Shown here: one piece after another, positions 4,619 through 23,500 of the stretch
How positions within the stretch are numbered: the first letter of the stretch is position 1
How the letters are laid out: each line of letters begins with the position of its first letter
Assembly: GCA_051362555.1 (NCBI GenBank)
Contig: CM120642.1
Location: forward strand, 30,690,001-30,754,000
DNA from: Lingula anatina
Lineage: Eukaryota; Animalia; Brachiopoda
Reading direction: 5' to 3'
DNA length: 64,000 bases
The notes under the pieces: generated by a model
What the model saw: the letters and a program-made list of their open reading frames with translations, nothing else
Database searches by the model: none
What the model was told of the DNA's origin: nothing
Position numbers and translations under genes: made by a program

Positions 4619-6070
4619 TTAATAATAATTCGTACCTTTTAATATATCGTTCAGTTCATCACTCTCAGAAGCTCCACAGAACTGCTGCAAATGTTCCAAT
4701 CTCTTCTTTGCTCTGGCTTCAAGCTCTGTCATTTTATTTCTGTGAGCGATGTCTTGTGCGGCATGAGCATATTGTCGTGAACGTTCGTACCTTCGTTGCC
4801 TGAAGCAAAGATCACTCAGCGCCAATTTGTAGTAAGGTTCCAAAAGGCCTGGAACGCCATAATCTGAATTTTCAACCTTATGGAGAAGATTCTCCGCCGC
4901 TTTTATGTCCTCAAAACTACTTGGAATATTCCGCATTGTTACACTGTCACAGCTAAGATGGAGAAGCGCTTTGCGAATGGACGTGTTATTATACCCGTGG
5001 GGACCGTCAATGCCCTCCTCGGCGGAAAAGTCTTCTAGAGCGTGGTTAAAACAATTGTGACACTCATCTTCGAGTATTTTGAAAGTCTCTGGGTTCTCAC
5101 TTTGGTCTGTCTCCCACAGTTTACGTGCTCTGTATAAACCTACGCACATATTTATCCAACCAGCCGTTCTTCCTTTAAGTAACTGCTCAGAAACTCGCAC
5201 TGCTCTCAAAGCAGAATTCACGAAATCTTCTTTCAAATCGGGCGTTGCTCTTACGGTATAGTGTAAAGCGGGAATCATTTTACTTATCTCGAAATAATTC
5301 CGGTCAGATGTGTGAGGTATTATACCGTCCATTGTGTCCAGCAGCATTTTTGCTTTTTCAACTTCATCGTGGTATAAGCTATCTTCAATTTGAAGATATA
5401 TCAAATAAAACTGAACATCTGGCTTAGCTAATTTTGGGAATGCAGCCGCGGGAGCGTTCAGCCATTGTGTCGTCTTTTCCACCAAATTGTTCAATTTAAT
5501 CCTTTCTCTTTGAGCTAGCAACTTACTTCCTTCATCATATATTTTCAAGATGAGAGCGTGCTCTTTGCGTTGAAAGGTCACGGAAATTCCCGGAACCAGG
5601 AACATTGTTGGCGCGAAAACTAGTGAGGTCTTACCAGCCAACTCTACCTCTCTAAGCGACGGCAACTTTGTTTTGTCGCGGATTAGAGTCGCCAAACGTC
5701 CATGGAAATCTTCATGCGTAAAACGGAGATAAGTAAATGATTTGAGTGAGATTGGCAAATCCTTTATTTTTATGTTCAAAATAACAGGAATTATCCATTC
5801 CCATGATTCACCTCTAGTTCCCAGCACGGTGTAAACAGTCATCGTGTATAGCTGAGAGGTTAGAAAGTTTTTAGAAACAAAGACGACCATTTTTTTGGAA
5901 TTCATAATTGCACGTTCAATATTTTGTAATTCTGACATCCCCGGTATGAAATCCCGTTTTCTGAACACACACGTGATACCGTCCCTTTCTAAATATTCCA
6001 ACACGTCGATCACCAAATCCTCGTCTTCCTCGCAGTAGTGGAGGAATGCGTCATACTTTGTCTCGGCCAT
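4619..6070 (-). CDS. Intronless TIR-domain protein with a C-terminal alpha-helical (TPR-like) domain, 483 aa
   Basis: N-terminal YDAFLHY, RDFIPG (BB loop), IERAIMNSKKMVVFVSKNFL, IIPVIL and LPISLKSFTYL are classic TIR motifs. An in-frame TGA lies just upstream of the ATG. The C-terminal about 310 aa consist of amphipathic helices (LALSDLCFRQRRYERSRQYAHAAQDIA). Confidence 0.9.
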   Translation of the reverse strand: MAETKYDAFLHYCEEDEDLVIDVLEYLERDGITCVFRKRDFIPGMSELQNIERAIMNSKKMVVFVSKNFLTSQLYTMTVYTVLGTRGESWEWIIPVILNIKIKDLPISLKSFTYLRFTHEDFHGRLATLIRDKTKLPSLREVELAGKTSLVFAPTMFLVPGISVTFQRKEHALILKIYDEGSKLLAQRERIKLNNLVEKTTQWLNAPAAAFPKLAKPDVQFYLIYLQIEDSLYHDEVEKAKMLLDTMDGIIPHTSDRNYFEISKMIPALHYTVRATPDLKEDFVNSALRAVRVSEQLLKGRTAGWINMCVGLYRARKLWETDQSENPETFKILEDECHNCFNHALEDFSAEEGIDGPHGYNNTSIRKALLHLSCDSVTMRNIPSSFEDIKAAENLLHKVENSDYGVPGLLEPYYKLALSDLCFRQRRYERSRQYAHAAQDIAHRNKMTELEARAKKRLEHLQQFCGASESDELNDILKGTNYY

Positions 6071-7499
6071 GCCACTTCAGGTGAATGTTCTTCCGCTAAT
6101 GTCTTAATTGCCTATATGATGTATTGTCCTCTGCTCGCACTTAACTGGCGGAAGTTGAGGCCTCCCCATCGCAAGCACTGTCATCAAGCAAACGCGGATT
6201 TCAGAGGTTAAGAAGCAGGTGTCTATTTCACGACGACCATGTCATTAAGTGCACTGTAGAATGATCCTCCAAATGCACTGATACTGAATGCCTCTTAGCC
6301 ATGTTTTGTTGTGTCACGATCAGCTATTTTCCCCAAACACTTTCTTCCGGTCTTGGAATGTTTAGGGCAAGAAGCCTTGCGATGAGGGGCCGTTGTTTTC
6401 TTTGCTGTATCGACATGCGACAAGTACGTGGTATCGAAGAACAAATACAATGATCAGCTCCCCGAGATAATGATTCGAACCCTCTCACTGCCTAGTTTTT
6501 TGATGAACGCGATTAATGCCAATTTAACACCCTTATATGTGCTTTTCACTTCGCACTTAGCTTGAGTAAAGTGGTTTATCGTAACTCAGGTTAACGCCTA
6601 AGTAAGCAGTATTCATTCACCAATACAGCGCACACATGCTTATTTAATGATTGTCATAATCAATAAGAAAAAATCCCAGTTTCGATACTAGTGTTACTAG
6701 TATTGTATGAAGGTTTGAACTGGTGCCAACTAATAAAATAATAGACAGGTGACGCAGTCCTTTCTACATTAATTACTTATGAAAATATCTATTGCTAGAC
6801 CTTACCAAGACGGTGTGAATGGGCCATTCAAAATAACTTTCGAATCGCGAAGTGTTAACACTATCATATGTACGGATTATGGCAAATATAATTGACATGC
6901 GTTGATTATTTTTGAGCTGATAGTTGTCTTAACTTAATCAATATCATGGTTCTACAGCCGAGGTGATGCTGTATAGTACTGAAGGCCAAGAAGCACGACA
7001 AAATCGCTTAAAGAACCTGTGATTTAACTATCACGGAATTGTAAACTTTGACATAAAACTTTAACGTACGTACGACGCAATATAACAAGTGAGAAAGCTT
7101 AAAATCTGAACTGTTAGTTGTTCGGATGGTATGACCTTGTATTTACGCATTTGTCGTTTATTTACTGGATTCTTTTTAACACTGCATTTCAGAATCCCGA
7201 GGTATAGATCCGTGGGATTGATCACGGTCAATAAATGAGAAGTCCTTCAATGGTAATACAAAGTGATAACGACAAATCACAACTTTAAGCAGCTGACAAA
7301 TTTTATTCGAATATGTTGCATACAATGAAGTGATAAAGTACAAATATCGCACTGCAAAAAAGTACAATACAACCGTCACGACTGCAACGGAACGACGCCT
7401 ACTTGGGTTCATCTAAAACTACTAGGTATGGAGGTATGTAGGACTATAGGAACTTTGCAGCACACGGGTTTTAGTTTTTCACTATGCCGCCATTGAAAA

Positions 7500-9542: not shown

Positions 9543-9722
9543 TTACAAAGTGACAACAGGGAAGTCGCCCAGGTCCTCGTCGCTGACTCCACTGCTGAAG
9601 TTTTTAGGATGTTTTACCTTCTGAATCAAGATCGACATGGAGGTGAGGTCGCCATCAGCCTTCTGAAGCTCTGAGATATCCTGCGCATAGCGGTTCTGGA
9701 AATCTAGCTTATTCTCGATAAT
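9543..9722 (-). CDS. DDAH: DDAH alternative terminal exon 5c (Ser at the nucleophile position)
   Basis: Acceptor ttttcccttttcataaag, phase 0. IIENKLDFQNRYAQDISELQKADGDLTSMSILIQKVKHPKNFSSGVSDEDLGDFPVVTL*. Ser codon at 9641-9639. Confidence 0.85.
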   Translation of the reverse strand: MIENKLDFQNRYAQDISELQKADGDLTSMSILIQKVKHPKNFSSGVSDEDLGDFPVVTL

Positions 9723-10427
9723 CTTTATGAAAAGGGAAAAGAAAAAATAGTGTTGTAAGAAAAAAACTCTTGTTGATGAAGTTAAATATGCTGATAAATG
9801 TAAAATAGATTTTCGTAAATTAAAACAAGAAACTTTGAAGAACTGCTGTCTTAATCTTATAAAGTTATATTAAATACTATCTTAATATATCTAATTAATT
9901 CATCAAGACTTCCAAAGACCTAAATATTACAAATAACATAACTTGAAGGTCTAATAATTTACTACAGTCAAATATGGAACATTACACATGTGGAGAGGGG
10001 GGGGGGGGGGGGGCACAATAAATAGAATGCAAAAAAGAAAATGGTTACCAGCAGGTTATTCAACCAAAATACTTATGGCCCAAAATAAATCAGACTCGGG
10101 GGGAAAATTCCTTTCACCATAAAATAATTACGCTCAAAAATTGACCAAAGCAAGCAAGTCAACCCACATTTCAAAGCTTTAAATAGTTGTTTAAATAAAA
10201 AAAAGCAATCCATTTGTTTCAATAAAAACAGGTTAAATCAAGATTTCCATTGCACAACACACTGCTTACTTCCTATACCAAAACACTCATCCAAAAACCA
10301 AATAAAAAGCATGCTAATGAAATGGCACACGTTCAACACTATACCACACAAATTCATCTCTTCCAAACTCTTCTTTAGTGCATTCTTTACCACAAACTGA
10401 TATCCAAGAACTCATTCCACTCACACA

Positions 10428-10461
<34 letters not shown>

Positions 10462-13400
10462 AATGTTCACACAAACAGAACAAAAGACATGTCAGCTGTC
10501 ACTCTGCCCTCAAAGCATTGAAAACCTGAAAAGTAACTCAAGACAAGAAGTGCAGAACAGCCTTGAGAACGGCTTGCAAGTGCTTGATGGTGTCTGCCCA
10601 GTAACATGCCAGAAAATAAATACACAATTACTGGCAATTCCAGTAACTCAGAACAATAAAAAATAAAACATTTATATAGTTATTTTGCAATTCAAAAAAT
10701 ATTCGATGGAGATCTGGAAGAATGTATATAATTCTTATAAGAATTTAAGATGAAAAAAAAAAAATTAAGAGAATGACATCGTACAATCAGCCTTGACCAG
10801 ACAACAGGGGTTGATGATGATGGTAAAACATCTGGATAAATAACATACATGGATACTTAGGTCTGTGTAGATGCAAAATGTTTGGGATTCTTTTGTTTAT
10901 TGACTAAGATGCAGAGACCAGTCAAGTAACCATCAGCTTTCTGCATCTCGCTAATGTCAGAAACAGTGTGGTGCTCGGGATCAAACTTGGCCTCAAGACT
11001 CTGGAAAGAATGGGCACAGACAAACACACTAAAACAAGCAAGTATATGTACTGCTATGTTAACATACTGCCAAAGAAAAACATGGGTTTAAATAAATCTC
11101 AGAATCCACGATCGAACAGTTTCTACAGTAAATGTGATAGATATATTTGGATACTAAAAACGTGCATTAGTTTTTACAGATCTAAACTACTAAACTGGAG
11201 CAAGTACTTTATCTACTGTAAGCATGTGATGAATAATTTTCCTGCAATCATTTTATTGAATATGTCATGACTTTGCTTGAAAACAGTAACAATATTGACT
11301 GAGTCAATCAGTCTTAACTGCAAGACAGCTTAGTGCCTCAGGATCAGCCAACAACACTGACAACAGAGGGAAAAGAGCAGCAAGGGACTTTGTAATCTGT
11401 ATGTCTGTCTTATTTTTCCTAACCAGTATGTTCAGGAAACCATTATTTACCACAACATCGACTACACAATACACATTAAATTTATATAAGTTTCTTGACA
11501 GGTGCTGCAATGGGATAAAGCTGGGTTGAAGAATGGGAATGTAGACAATAGCAGTTGTTGTTTCTTCATACATGCAATCTTTTTGAAAGTAACAATGTAA
11601 TTTCAACAAGTGAAATTAATACACCCTTGAAGAGTTACATAAATGAAGATACAGATGCAGCACAAGAGGAAAAAGCACAGAGGCATGGTACTGTGTGCCA
11701 GGGTGGCTGACAAGGGTCTTTCTGAAGAATTTTAGAATTGCCTTGACCATTGCTGTTGAAGATGATATGGAAGAATGATATGCATTAAAAAATTGACTTT
11801 AGAAGCCTCCATGAAATTAACATGGAAAACAAAAATTGCAGTGAATGTGTGTAGATAATTTGCTTCGATTTCTGCAGGTTCAGCACCCACCCACATATAA
11901 ATTCCCCAGAGAGGGCATCTGACAAAAGCACTGAAGAGAACACAGAGATGCTGTTAACATATACGCATTGGTACACTAACACACAATACATTCAACAAGG
12001 TACTACCCTCCTGAACTAGCTATCTCTCTTTTTTACTCTCATACAGGCAACTCAAATAATATTTTTAAAAAAGTGTAAAAATTAATAAAATGATTTAAAA
12101 AAAAATCATCAATGTAAAAAAGAAGTCACTCTTAATGTGAAGTATTTTCTACTCTTTGGTTATGTAACAGTTTCTTCCTGGTCAATCCACATCACATAGC
12201 ATACCTTTTAAGTTACAACTAAGAGCCAACTAGCACCAGTAATGCTATTCTTGAACGCTGGTTTGAAAAGATTTGGGATTCTTCATTCTTGTGATTAAAA
12301 TACTGAGACAGGTCAAACTGCCGTCTGCTTTCCCTATTTCACTTATGTCGCACACCATGCGGTTATCTATTTTGTGTTCAAGAATCTGCAAAAATTGAAG
12401 CATGAAAGGACCATGCTAGATGGGTAAACATGTGCTGCCACCTATGCTTGTGTTGCTGCCAGGGTTTGGAGGGCATAAGAAATAAGAAACTTGTTTGGAA
12501 AAAAGCTGTCAATTATCTATCGTGGTACTGAATGGAGCCTTGCTATTTGTTTTCTCTCATCTTTCTGCGTTGATTTTTCATTACTGATTTTTAATTTTTG
12601 AAAAATGTGGAATTAACACAACCCAAGCTGCCAAGTCTGAATGGATACTTTTTGTCAATCAATAATTAAACACACAATCTGAAACAGATAAAGGCATGGA
12701 TTGGTTAACCATTCTCTGTCAGTGTGTGTGTGCGTGTGTGTGTGCGTGTGTATGTGGGTCTGGTAACAGATGTATTACATGCAAAACCTGATTTTTAACA
12801 TGCAAAGGCAATCTCTGTGACTTGGCAACTGGGAACAAATACTACTTGATTCAAGACGCCACATCAAATTATCCAAATTTTGCAATGACATGTGGCTAAT
12901 AGGATCATTTGGCAGTTTTCTAAAATCATTTATTACATCTATCTTAGTTATTTTTTACTTAGCTATTCTCATTCCTAAATTGAAAATGTAACAAATTTCA
13001 AATCAGTGTCAATTATACATTACCAATGAAAACATAGCTTGGTGGGGCAATTATCAACTTCCTAAATTGACACATTTTATGGACATGGGAAACTGAAGGG
13101 TAGCTAGTTTTTACATTGGGTCCATTTTTTCCACATTTCTAGACATACTCCAGATGAGGAGGTGGCTGGAAAGAACTTGTTGCTGTTCACACACCAAAAC
13201 TGCATTTAAAATATGGACTGGGGGTAGATCTTTTTTCATCATTAAAATGTTATCATTTATTTTGAGAACATCAATCATCCAATTACGAATTTGAATTTGG
13301 TTTTTGTTAAATCTACACCTCATAAAAAGCCACAAGCAGCAAGGCCCCTACACCAAGCAAATGATAGTAAGTAAAAGCAGACTCATAGCACAAGCAAGTA

Positions 13401-16400
13401 GCACCCACATGTATAATCACAACAATTATATACAATATAGACTACACATATACATAGTACACTATGAAATAACAAAAAATTTCAATATAAAAAATACATT
13501 ACACCATATAAAGCATTTTGAGGTAGCAAAGCAATTCAAGACTTAATAAGTTACTACAAACAGCTTATCATATGGCAAACATATTTACATATGCAAAGAT
13601 GAAAAACAGTCAGCAAAGATGAGAATATTTATCAACAACCACGAGAAATGACTGTAATAAGGAAGCTCCCTGGTACATCTCAACAAGCACAATATTCAGG
13701 GTCACAACTAACACAATGTTATATTTAAGCACTTGTTACAGAGACCAAAATGGTTGCAGGCTAATTCCATGGTTTAACAGAGCTCATTCTATCTGCATCA
13801 GAAAACTTCAATCAGGAACCTTTCTTTCATAAAACTGGATCGTAATTCAGTATTTTTCAGCAAAACAGCAATGTAATTATCAGATATTCTTGTAACTGAA
13901 ACTACAACTGACAATTTAACAGATTTGATCAAAATATGCAGTATGAACATACAAAACAAGGAACAAAATTGTGAGTCAACAACCACCAAACTTCTCAAAG
14001 TATCCAAAAAGGTTTCCATTGATGCTAAAACTCAAAATGCCATTGCTAGAACAAGCTCTGTTCAACGATTTCAAACCTGCAGTTGAACTCACAGGAAAAC
14101 TCTTGGGGATGGTCGTGTCAGGAAGGTGGACACGCATTCCGTTGGCGTACAGCATGTTGGCGGCCTCCTCCTCCTCCACAGTCAGGATCATGTAGGAGTA
14201 AGTCACCTGCTCCTGAACTCTCTGTAACACATACAACTTATTTATGGACTTGTTAACTCTAAACTTCTCTTACATTGTAATAAATATTGCTTTTTTACCG
14301 AACGATTAATAATTCTGAGATAATCTGGTAATTGATTTTTTTAATGTGACAATGGTAACTACTGATAATTTCAAAGAACAGATTCATAATGAACATACAA
14401 CACAATTATACCCCATCTTTTTTTCATTTTAGAACTGAAGGGTTGGGTTGGTTGGTCTGGAAATAATTTTTACCACTTAGCAAAACCTTCAAACTCAACA
14501 CAACTTGCCACTAAAAATCTCTGATTCTTTTTCATGCATTGAAAACAAACTACCATCTTGGGCTATAAAAATGTGATCACCTTCAGTACTTTCTGTGCAG
14601 CTGGGGACCTGCTAACTGCAATAAGCTCTGGCCCTGCCATGCTCATGAGGCTCTTCAGGTGGAGAGCCCCCTCCACACGCACCATGCAGGTGGCATACTC
14701 TGGGAAAGCTTTGGCTATGGCCTGGGCACCCTCTTGGTTGGTTCTGCCAGAAAGACCAACCACGATCTCCTTGCCTGGAAAAGGATATTAGGACAAAAGG
14801 TAAACATTATGGCTGCGTTAAGATTAAAAGTTATCGGTCCAGCAGGATCAATCTATCTCGGGGTGAATTCTCACTAAGGCGCAGTCAATGTAATAAGCTT
14901 AATTGTCTGACATGCTCCTTCACAAAGGCAGCATCATGGACCACAAACAACCCCACCCCCCCTGACTTTACCCAAGTACTTTAAGTTGCAAAGGCAGCGT
15001 GTCAGACGATCAAGCTGATTACATCGATTCCTATAATCAAGCCATGTTGAAAATTGTTGAAACCCCTTGACCACAGCCTGAGCATTCTCTGTAAGCCAGT
15101 TTCATATAACTGGACAACAATTTTCTTGCCTGGAGAGAAACAGTGAAAAGAAAATATAAATCTCTCTTTGCTTAAGCTTCATTATTGGCCCTAAATATAT
15201 TTGTAAATATATATTACTGTAGCAGCCCCCTAACTGTCACAGAATTATCTTAAAATGTATCAGCATCTTTCTGACAGAATTCTTTCCCTTTTTTTACCCA
15301 ATGAAACTTTCTTTTTATAAAGTTGGCCACTTTACTTCACTATCTCAAAACTTTAAAGTTAAAACAAATCTGGAAAGTTAAAACAGTGGCCATCACATTC
15401 TTTTCTCAAACAGAACATTTTAAGCATCTGGCGTGACATTAAAATTGAGTTAATCTACCAATGTGCTGTTCCATATACAGCATTTTTAACAATAATGACT
15501 GCTATCTCAAATAACATATCAGTTAAAAATGTATTTTGCCTGAGTTGAACTCTTTGATATTCAGTATATTCATACCATAGGCAGATGTCTTTCCCATCCC
15601 CATCCCCCACACTGTCCATACCAATCTAAGAGACAGCCAACAACAGTTGTGTAGGCTGCACTTGTAATGCCTGTAAAAACCTTGCGGAAGGCTATAAAGT
15701 AATATATTGGGCAACAGCAGAGCAATTGGTTCACTAACAGCCAGCAAGTCTGAAGATACAAGATGCACCTATTCTGTTGTCTAGGAAGTGCCAATGCCAC
15801 TGTGTCAAGTGTATCTAAGTTATTACGCCAAAAATGTCTTTTTTTTTTAGATATACATGTGCCTGTACTACAGTGTCTGCTGTACATACATAACATTGTA
15901 CTAGTAATTTTGTTATAGAGCACATGTCCTTGTTTAAGATGTGTCTATAACACTGCCTCAGTTGTTTCTGGGATTATTATCAGGATAGTTTTTTTTTTTA
16001 TTTTGTTATTAATTAGCATATATGCCCCTTGTTTCAGTTGTGTCTGTATTATCATTTCAGTTTTCCAGGCCTAGAAATTTCAAAAATAACACAAATAGGA
16101 CAAGATGGGACATCCAGTAGACTCTCACCTGTCCATAACACATCTCCTCCATCTATTGTTGCTTTGTCATTGTCCACTTCCACTATCTTCAGTCCTAGCT
16201 CCTTCCTCAGTGTCTGCCGGATCACTGCAACCTAAAACACACACCAAAAAGTGCTCTGTTATTACTGGCTTGCGAAAATGTTTTGGTCCTTCCACAAGTT
16301 TCACAATAAAATTTTGATATTTCAATTAAAAATTATTAATATTAATATGGCCTTATTTATGATTTTAGTTAAAACTATATATATATAGTTGTTGTTCAAT

Positions 16401-20558: not shown

Positions 20559-23500
20559 GTAGGTGGGGGTGGGTTCAAAAGAAAAACATTTCCTGAGATG
20601 ATTAATATCCCAGTAATTTTTCAACTCAAAATAACATTTTATCTTGTTCTGATAAAGGCTTTAAATTCAATCAATGAGTCACTGAGCATTAGGATTATTT
20701 ATTAGATTAACAAAAACTGCAATGTGGGTTTCACTTTCTCTTCCTTTTTTTTCCTTGAAATGTTATCCCCCCAAATAAGCGTAATGTAAGACCTAATCAT
20801 GTCAGCTAAGTGCCTACACACGTAAAACCTGCCACAGTCAATTCATATAAGAATCCTTTATTAAACAAGGAAAAAAATCTAAACAAGATATCTTGACCTC
20901 ATGCTATGAACAACAACTGTTTTTTAGCACAGGAACATATTAGATTGACTCCAGGGTAACACGGCTGGCCCATAAACTTGGTCAATCAAGAATAAAATGA
21001 TAACCAATTTTAATAATTACATCTTTCTTTTCAGTTGATTTTCATAATGTTATTATGATTTATTAGCCTTATCCCATAATTATCTTTACTTTCCCCTGTG
21101 TCGAGTTTCCTGGTGACTACCTTCCCCACAAAAATTTTCATGTAATTATCAAGCAGAGCTCTATTCCTGTAGTATTATAAAATGATAAATCAAATCCATC
21201 AAAGCACAGATAAATCAAAGTATGGACCATAAGGTATAATATCTAACAACAAGCCAACACTGTGGTCTCACCCTGGCCACATTCAGAACAGTGGACTAAC
21301 TAGTCCTAGGGTCAAACATGGGTCCAACTACAGAGCTTGCCTTCTAATCCCCTAATAGACAATGAATAGATTCCAAGTGGGGAAGTATTCCAGTGGGTTG
21401 GCCATATTCGACCCTCGGACAAGTTCGTTCACTGTTCTGAAAGCGACCCCTGACACCTTTCACCAAGTTATGGCTCTGATGACCTGGTCGTCTCATTCAT
21501 TGTCACACTGCTTGGAATTGTCCCCAGTGTCCAAATCCCATTGAATTTTACCTCACAAGTTCTAGTATTTGATTCACTTCATATTCTTGATTCTAATGGA
21601 TGAATAAGAACATTTGTTCATTCAAACATGGTCAATGCTCACTGTTATGATGCATTCCTCCTAAACACAATGCTTGTAATTCTTCCAAACCATTTATCAA
21701 GTTACAAAATTATTTCATTCCCCAGACACTTTTAGCATACGTCAACCTTAAGTATTTAGCTTTCCCCACAATACGTTGGTCTTTGAGGGATTACAATAAC
21801 AAAGCCTTGATCTTAGTGTGGCTAAAAAGACAGATGGTTAGGACTGAAGTCATCCATAAATGAGATTAGGAAAAAGTGCACATATTGCTGACTGTAAACC
21901 AATAAACCTACGGAAAGATAAACAGTTTCTGATGAATCTCAGACATTGATAATTTCAAGCAGTTAAAACTTAAATCTCAATCTTCATTGTGTCAGCACAT
22001 CAAACGGTCATCTTTTTTAAAAATCATACCAGTATATAGTATGCACATTAAAGGCAAAGTGAAATGAATTCTCCAGACAGAACTGCACTTGACCATGACA
22101 TTAGTGCTGATGAGATCATGAGCAATATAAAAAAATTGAAAAATGGCAAATCAACAGGGGAAGACAAGGTAACCAACGAAATGATAAAATCAGGGAAGGA
22201 TTATCTTATAGATGTAATTGTAAAATTGTTCAATATCATATACAAAAGTGCTAAGTACCCATCAATATGGAACAAGGCATATATAGTCCCTATCCACAAA
22301 TCTGGTGATGAATCAAATGTTAACAACTACAGGGGAATATCTATTACAAGCTGCCTCGGAAAGCTGTACAACTCGGTCCTGTTAAACAGAATTCAAGCAC
22401 ACGCATCCCAACAAGGGATACCCCTACCTCATCAAACTGGGTTTAAACATGGTCATGGTACTTCAGATAATATCTTTATATTTAAGTCCATTATTACAAA
22501 ATTTATGAAAGGAAAGAAAAAATTATACACATGTTTCATTGACTTTTCAAAAGCATTCGATAGTGTTTGGAGGAACGGACTACTGTTCAAGCTAAGTACT
22601 CTAGGAATAAGAGGACTTATGTACAAAAACATTAAAAGCATGTATGAAAACTCCCAAGCATGTGTTAAGACAAGTAGTGGTATATCCCCGGCCTTTAATA
22701 CAACACTAGGTGTAAAACAAGGTGACACATTGAGCCCATTTCTTTTTAATATTTTTATTGACGACCTTCTTAGATCAATTGATAGCGAAAGTGCTGCAAG
22801 TCCAGATATAAATGGAATACCAATACAAGGTTTACTCTATGCTGATGACCTCATCCTTATGTCCAAGACCCCCAATGGGCTAAGGCAAAGTTTGGAAGTA
22901 GTAGAAAATTTCTGTAACAAGTGGAGACTGACTGTAAATGTCACCAAAACTAAAGTAGTTATTTTCAACTCAAAATCAAAAGCTCACAGTGAAAAATTTT
23001 TCCTGTATGGAAAACCAATCCAAGAGGTCAACAAATACATGTATCTAGGTCTCCTTCTAAATCGATCAGGAAGCTTTACAGAAACCAAAAATAATCTCCT
23101 ACAACGTGCTACAAAGGCATTCTTCAGTCTGTCCAAGTCTCTTCCACTTCAGAGTAATGTTAACACATCCTTAAAAGAGAAATTATTTGATACCCTCATT
23201 TCCCCAATCCTTACATATTGCTCAGAGATATGGGGCTACTCGGTGTCAACGGATAACTGCCCTACAGAAAAGTTGCACTTAAAATTTTGCAAACAAATCC
23301 TTGGCCTCCATCAAAACGTATCAAACTATGGTGTATACACTGAACTTGGCCGCCTTCCCCTCTATACCAAAATACAGTTTGCATCTGTCAAACTATGGTG
23401 TAAAATTATTCAAATGTCTGATGCTACACTAATGAAACAAGCATACATACAAGAGATAAATAGTTACAAGTTGCTGACACCCTATGTCCCACCCGCAGTC

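Follow-up and report, generated by a model that had tools for sequence, protein, structure and literature searches.

A DDAH gene with three homologous end exons

The window analyzed in this work is a 64-kb stretch of Lingula anatina DNA, whose minus strand carries a gene for dimethylarginine dimethylaminohydrolase (DDAH) in which four shared exons are followed by three homologous end exons, designated 5a, 5b, and 5c. Placement in the DDAH family was indicated by Pfam (PF19420), by a phmmer match to human DDAH1 (E 1e-63), and by Foldseek, with a template modeling (TM) score of 0.84. The exon 1 peptide is a 100% match to a 303-amino-acid (aa) Lingula anatina protein, named DDAH1-like at NCBI, that corresponds to exons 1 to 4 plus 5c. 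Exons 1 to 4 encode 244 shared residues and end in phase 0; exon 1 sequence is carried by loose RNA read ends at 16233. Among the shared residues, we take D74, R99, and R147 to be binding residues of DDAH. The features of the gene, numbered along the window, are as follows.

31524-31219, minus strand: DDAH exon 1, coding part, from the ATG to the FVED motif, with E79, D80, and R99 (Pfam DDAH_eukar, E 4.9e-6)
16231-16129, minus strand: DDAH exon 2, with DGGD and the catalytic D132; exon 2-3 joint seen in 4 of 4 runs
14774-14581, minus strand: DDAH exon 3, with HLKS and the catalytic H175; RNA joints
14221-14093, minus strand: DDAH exon 4, the last shared exon, with a phase-0 GT donor; RNA joints
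12385-12205, minus strand: exon 5a, a stop-bearing cassette; coding 12385-12245 (46 aa), Cys270 codon 12310-12308, donor at 12205, 40 nucleotides (nt) past the stop
11000-10849, minus strand: exon 5b, a stop-bearing cassette; coding 11000-10857 (47 aa), Gly272 codon 10919-10917, donor at 10849, 8 nt past the stop
9722-7290 (3′ end approximate), minus strand: exon 5c, the terminal exon; coding 9722-9543 (59 aa), Ser272 codon 9641-9639
9593-9561, minus strand: residues 288-298, an acidic motif in the 5c tail, conserved with the mollusc long-tailed exon and of low confidence in the structure model

Each end exon is preceded by AG, opens in phase 0, and is ended by its own stop, and by a crude pyrimidine score the acceptors of 5a, 5b, and 5c rank 8th, 4th, and 5th among the 247 AGs of the region. 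In tblastn comparisons, the three share 51 to 52% pairwise identity (E 3e-12 to 4e-9). A fourth copy was not found in the window, where the next tblastn match had an E of 0.5, and the introns flanking the copies showed no similarity above E 0.09. A sequence-only reading of this DNA had proposed three homologous phase-0 end exons with good acceptors and their own stops, and the coordinates and peptides obtained here are the same. That reading had also suggested selection on all three, which the codon comparison bears out: dN values of the exon pairs are 0.39 to 0.53, synonymous sites are saturated (pS, 0.71 to 1.07), and identical residues are encoded by different codons in 11 of 23, 18 of 25, and 13 of 22 cases for the three pairs. 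As judged from these codons, purifying selection acts on all three end exons.

The catalytic triad of DDAH consists of Cys273, His172, and Asp126, with the first of two cysteines serving as the nucleophile (PMC10256801). When the Lingula protein was aligned with human DDAH1, LTC of 5a fell on the human LTC, with FVED, DGGD, and HLKS in register, and C270, H175, and D132 of the 5a isoform aligned with the human Cys-His-Asp triad, which is therefore complete. The 5b and 5c isoforms lack the catalytic Cys, carrying G272 and S272, respectively; the codons are TGT (12310) in 5a, GGT (10919) in 5b, and TCC (9641) in 5c. Exon 5b does have a Cys two residues further on (+2) besides its Gly, whereas the 5c peptide contains Ser, no +2 Cys, and zero Cys overall.

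The proposed Cys/Gly/Ser swap was corroborated by this alignment and by structure scores. The 5a protein scored higher with wild-type structures than with Cys-to-Ser mutants (3i2e 217.6 versus 3p8p 213; 3rhy 106 versus 1h70 101.9), and the order was reversed for the 5c protein (3p8p 218.4 versus 3i2e 216.1; 1h70 103.8 versus 3rhy 101.4). This reversal holds for the human structures and for the bacterial ones alike. Submitted alone, the three end exons gave no DDAH match in Pfam, and the 5c peptide by itself returned just two chance matches from the PDB (E 0.5). The full 5c model adopts the DDAH fold at a mean predicted local distance difference test (pLDDT) score of 89.3 (versus DDAH1, TM 0.84 and root mean square deviation 1.6), with pLDDT below 50 in the tail, residues 284 to 298.

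Splicing of the end exons

Of nine raw Lingula RNA runs listed, eight (X1 to X8) were aligned to the window, using 6 to 26% of each; X1 to X3 belong to study P1 and X4 to X8 to studies P2 and P3. Junctions were counted as reads, so that mates may count twice. The predicted junctions from exon 4 (14093) to 12385, 11000, and 9722 were all detected, with 18, 9, and 394 of 421 reads, respectively. Reads joining exon 4 to 5c (Ser) numbered 107 in X4, 116 in X5, 26 in X6, 71 in X7, and 74 in X8 (54, and another 20 whose joint is displaced by a letter difference where the exon ends); there were none in X1, X2, and X3. Joining to 5a (Cys) was seen in X1 (6 reads), X2 (4), and X6 (8) and in no other run. 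Joining to 5b (Gly) was seen in X4 (2), X5 (4), and X7 (3) and not in X1; in the second batch of runs, up to 2 such reads per run could sit below the listing threshold. Of the three-way switch that had been proposed, the splicing of all three exons thus stands, but most of the output is the Ser form, and 5b is present in trace amounts.

Two further joints with canonical ends were found downstream. One connects 5a to 5c (12205 to 9722; X1 13, X2 6, and X3 5, or 24 reads) and the other 5b to 5c (10849 to 9722; X4 3, X5 1, and X7 4, or 8 reads); a 5a-5b joint was not listed in any of the 8 runs. Each of 5a and 5b thus possesses a donor of its own beyond the stop, and the reads connect it to 5c, so that the two are cassettes that splice on into 5c rather than last exons. 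Since every end exon has a stop, the first copy included is the coding one, and 5c is coding when both cassettes are skipped and 3′ untranslated region (UTR) when either is included. Its UTR of about 2.25 kb is common to the isoforms, with RNA depth continuous to about 7310 and an AATAAA at 7307. The earlier proposal of alternative last exons with separate poly(A) sites does not agree with these reads: a transcript end in each exon and the lack of a downstream donor were not what was found, X6 being the one unclear run. The arrangement instead has the features of homologous mutually exclusive exons, namely, tandem copies of common origin and the same phase with one coding copy per transcript, and differs from the textbook form in that the terminal copy is still retained as UTR.

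A comparison of isoform ratios had been suggested as a check, and the ratios differed between samples. In P1 only the Cys path was found (exon 4 to 5a 10 reads, 5a to 5c 24, and exon 4 to 5c 0), whereas X4 to X8 were almost all Ser (394 reads to 5c, 9 to 5b, and 8 to 5a). End-exon use differs sharply between the sample groups, in a nearly all-or-none manner; a Fisher test of P1 versus P2 plus P3 gave p 1e-15 on reads, a value that is overstated, as reads are not independent.

Inclusion of 5a and 5b could also be unproductive splicing, that is, decay or noise that lowers the 5c protein, with the reading frames as leftovers. The two exons are indeed minor overall (27 of 421 reads), and X1, which uses 5a, has a low count at the exon 2-3 joint (12 reads per 1766 million letters, versus 89 to 92 per 1138 to 1658 million in X4, X5, and X7). 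However, the 5a and 5b frames appear to be under purifying selection with saturated synonymous sites, and 5a is the sole form in three runs. The limit for junction-dependent decay is 50 nt (PMC4359369), and since the stops of 5a and 5b are separated from the last junction by 40 and 8 bases, their transcripts should escape it, provided that the rule, which we infer for Lingula, applies there. We therefore consider this explanation very improbable.

A noncanonical joint with extra letters, 12612-15980, was seen in X7 only and was set aside as a likely repeated intronic element. Two other open reading frames (ORFs) lie near or within the gene: a single long ORF just downstream of it (4619-6076, minus strand) has an N-terminal TIR domain (Pfam E 2e-14), and a 684-aa ORF with a YADD motif (22052-24106, plus strand), presumably resembling a long interspersed nuclear element (LINE) reverse transcriptase, lies antisense inside intron 1.

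DDAH end exons in relatives

RefSeq already predicts the 5c and 5a proteins of Lingula (XP_023930485; XP_013388282, isoform X1; XP_013388283, isoform X2), and both are named DDAH1-like, names that are silent on the nucleophile swap. The 5b protein is absent among the 3 RefSeq members of the Lingula cluster. A second Lingula copy differs by 1 residue in the shared part and has isoforms X1 (5c) and X2 (5a); this copy (P0045, P0046), on a 572-kb contig, is likely an allelic duplicate of the assembly.

Exon arrays in other animals were read from annotated isoform proteins. In 13 mollusc species, two homologous end exons are swapped at the exon 4 boundary, and chiton, gastropod, and bivalve isoform pairs split there into a short exon, whose end lies near IISTLP, and a long acidic-tailed exon. 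In fused gene models (Batillaria, Magallana, Biomphalaria, and Mytilus coruscus) the order is that of Lingula, with the short exon ahead of the long one. The 5c tail matched the long tails of the 13 mollusc species by column (0 of 20,000 in each of two nulls, for a motif picked after viewing the alignment). Of 22 peptides scored against a profile of the mollusc long exons, 5c ranked highest (44.4 bits); Owenia, which has no tail, scored 44.3, 5b 33.8, and 5a 20.7. Two transcript-like metagenome contigs among 80 loci, L001 and L002, show about 74% protein identity to Capitella. L002 holds an end exon, its stop, 36 bases, and then a second homologous exon, and L001 joins the second exon directly, so that the pair shows cassette-then-terminal joining in an annelid-like animal, with an assembly artifact being possible. 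By these sequence comparisons the layout extends beyond Lingula, and molluscs and the annelid-like animal swap pairs of exons that both lack the Cys. Exon swapping can therefore persist for reasons unrelated to catalysis, and swapping of tails may be the older purpose of end-exon choice.

The nucleophile position was then compared in 78 named spiralian DDAH proteins of 45 genera, taken from the best 120 matches per search with unnamed proteins and partial or fused models excluded, a scope in which a distant Cys-bearing paralog is possible. The residues were S in 39, R in 13, N in 12, K in 6, A in 4, G in 3, and C in 1, and the sole Cys bearer is Lingula 5a. Among 37 proteins from other animals, 17 have Cys; it was found in all 8 crustacean genera and in 0 of the 12 insect genera sampled (11 Ser, 1 Ala). 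These counts suggest that the nucleophile is missing from the majority of spiralian and insect proteins that carry a DDAH1-like annotation. The +2 Cys of 5b had been put forward as a special link to vertebrate DDAH2, but it occurs in 13 of the 78 spiralian and 18 of the 37 other proteins and was rejected as a DDAH2 signature. The DDAH2 combination of a nucleophile-position Ser with a +2 Cys is present in neither exon, as 5c has no +2 Cys and 5b has Gly.

The main rival to a catalytic switch is that the end exons exchange C-terminal tails or surfaces. By this account spiralian DDAH has long been noncatalytic, the exons change its partners or location, and the Cys of 5a is left over from an earlier state or was regained in one step, with little activity. 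Such an account agrees with the missing Cys in 77 of the 78 spiralian proteins, with the swapping of two Cys-less exons at the same boundary elsewhere, with the conservation of the 5c tail, and with the single base change that turns Ser TCN into Cys TGY. Nevertheless, the KADG.LTC loop is complete in 5a, and none of the catalytic and binding residues has been lost from the shared body, whose branch is short; E79, D80, D132, and H175 are all kept in Lingula but in only 31 of the 78 spiralian proteins, and many Cys-less relatives, unlike Lingula, have lost E79 or H175. Retained residues and a short branch are expected if one isoform still needs catalysis, and we regard the tail-only explanation as unlikely.

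Alternatively, the Ser form could be an enzyme of other chemistry or substrate (a Ser nucleophile or another guanidino compound), such that splicing changes specificity. Ser is the commonest residue in spiralians and is the one present in 11 of the 12 insect genera sampled, and His and Asp are often preserved alongside it. However, both the engineered Cys-to-Ser DDAH and the Ser-bearing DDAH2 are inactive on asymmetric dimethylarginine (ADMA) (PMC10256801), and the drift of the position to R, N, K, A, and G in relatives fits a loss of catalysis. This possibility appears improbable.

In trees built without any DDAH2 sequence, the shared body gave Lingula a short branch (0.16) among bryozoans, annelids, nemerteans, and flatworms, with molluscs in their own clade and the fork left open. 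In the end-exon trees, which rest on very short alignments, the three Lingula exons grouped together at 94/87 and 94/96, not starred, and a constraint joining 5c with the mollusc long exons was not rejected (p-AU 0.136). The duplications may be shared with molluscs or parallel, the end-exon trees being too short to date them. We tentatively entertain a scenario, possible although hardly the expected outcome, in which Lingula keeps an ancestral spiralian cassette state: a catalytic exon and an acidic-tailed pseudocatalytic terminal exon would predate the brachiopod-mollusc split, molluscs, annelids, nemerteans, and flatworms would have lost the catalytic copy, and Lingula would still toggle hydrolysis by tissue- or stage-specific splicing. 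If this is true, most spiralians would be without an active DDAH from this gene, and Lingula would offer a one-gene, same-body control for the role of inactive DDAH proteins such as human DDAH2.

Other variants of DDAH exons were observed during the survey. In Lineus (P0017, P0047, P0048, and P0018) and Owenia (P0083 and P0150), a homologous exon 4 is swapped as well, and in Lineus both exon 4 versions occur with both end-exon versions, giving four combinations. A gene model of the millipede Chamberlinius (P0081, residues 232 to 308; P0086) contains two tandem end-exon homologs, with Cys in the second; the first is truncated ahead of the nucleophile position and is similar to a Ser-type spider exon, and a Cys/non-Cys exon pair may thus exist in myriapods. 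The hemichordates Ptychodera (P0377) and Glandiceps (P0368) have very similar end exons with Cys and Ser, respectively, at the nucleophile, and several insect DDAH1-like Ser forms carry a Cys at +1.

A predicted splice switch and its known counterparts

Since the catalytic Cys is found only in 5a, splice choice likely toggles between an active and an inactive product, and we consider it probable that the gene works as a switch between an active DDAH (5a) and a predicted pseudoenzyme that dominates (mainly 5c, rarely 5b). Joining of exon 4 to 5a would yield a methylarginine hydrolase, inclusion of 5b a rare third form that is predicted to be inactive, and skipping of both cassettes the abundant Ser form, a predicted pseudoenzyme with an intact pocket and the conserved acidic tail. 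The Ser form keeps D74, E79, D80, R99, D132, R147, and H175, as engineered Cys-to-Ser mutants do, and would hold methylarginine, or a partner, without cleaving it and act via its tail. Hydrolysis would be switched on through 5a inclusion by a splicing factor that is specific to a tissue or stage. In the Pseudomonas enzyme, a Cys-to-Ser change kills catalysis while the interaction with ADMA stays equivalent (PMC10256801). A candidate role in nitric oxide control follows solely from vertebrate DDAH biology.

Several points weigh against this switch. The P1 counts are small (34 informative reads), its expression in X1 is about tenfold lower, and study and biology are confounded. X7 and X8 reads are 90 to 99% alike to the window and represent another, more divergent population. 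X6 has 8 exon 4-5a reads and zero 5a-5c reads, so that 5a may sometimes end otherwise than by joining 5c. Evidence for 5b amounts to 17 reads in 3 of 8 runs. Both alternative exons are without Cys in the 13 mollusc pairs and in L001/L002. The ligand-trap step is uncertain for the Ser form, because binding of ADMA by human DDAH2 is merely unstable (PMC10256801).

Catalytic-residue exon swaps, tandem exon arrays, and DDAH-fold pseudoenzymes are each already known. In a literature search that covered few subscription journals, no description of a DDAH splice switch or of invertebrate DDAHs lacking the Cys was found. Pseudoenzymes usually arise from gene duplication; in Lingula, a single spliced exon separates the enzyme from the predicted pseudoenzyme, and 244 residues are common to both. 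According to PMC9980740, molluscs, annelids, rotifers, and sponges have no DDAH, a statement contradicted by the mollusc and annelid proteins found here. Cys-less DDAH1-like proteins matter for invertebrate methylarginine clearance and for database annotation.

Among homologous mutually exclusive exons of the PKM1/2 type, 9 events hit catalytic-site residues, for example, in fly CG42249 (PMC7954323), and the main text of that source has 0 matches for DDAH; mollusc TEP genes such as snail TEP2 also contain arrays of tandem exons (PMC7016707). The Lingula exons are likewise tandem duplicates used one at a time, but they bear their own stops and chain into a terminal copy. Trypanosome RESC5 is a DDAH-fold pseudoenzyme that functions within a complex; it has lost Cys and His, but the majority of its binding residues remain (PMC9980740). 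The predicted 5c protein is similar in lacking the Cys with most binding residues retained, whereas RESC5 lost the His too, is encoded by a separate gene, and is 16% identical to the Lingula model. With vertebrate DDAH1 and Pseudomonas DDAH, the Lingula protein shares the fold, 44 to 47% identity, FVED, DGGD, and HLKS, and, in 5a, a full triad of predicted activity; it differs in having three copies of the nucleophile exon and Ser in its commonest product. Vertebrate DDAH2 has Ser274 at the nucleophile position and does not hydrolyze ADMA, and the function of this inactive protein is an open question (PMC10256801). Lingula 5c has the same Ser and 5b the +2 Cys, but DDAH2 is a separate gene and the Lingula forms come from one gene by splicing, and thus the three isoforms make up a natural matched set for probing what inactive DDAH2 does.
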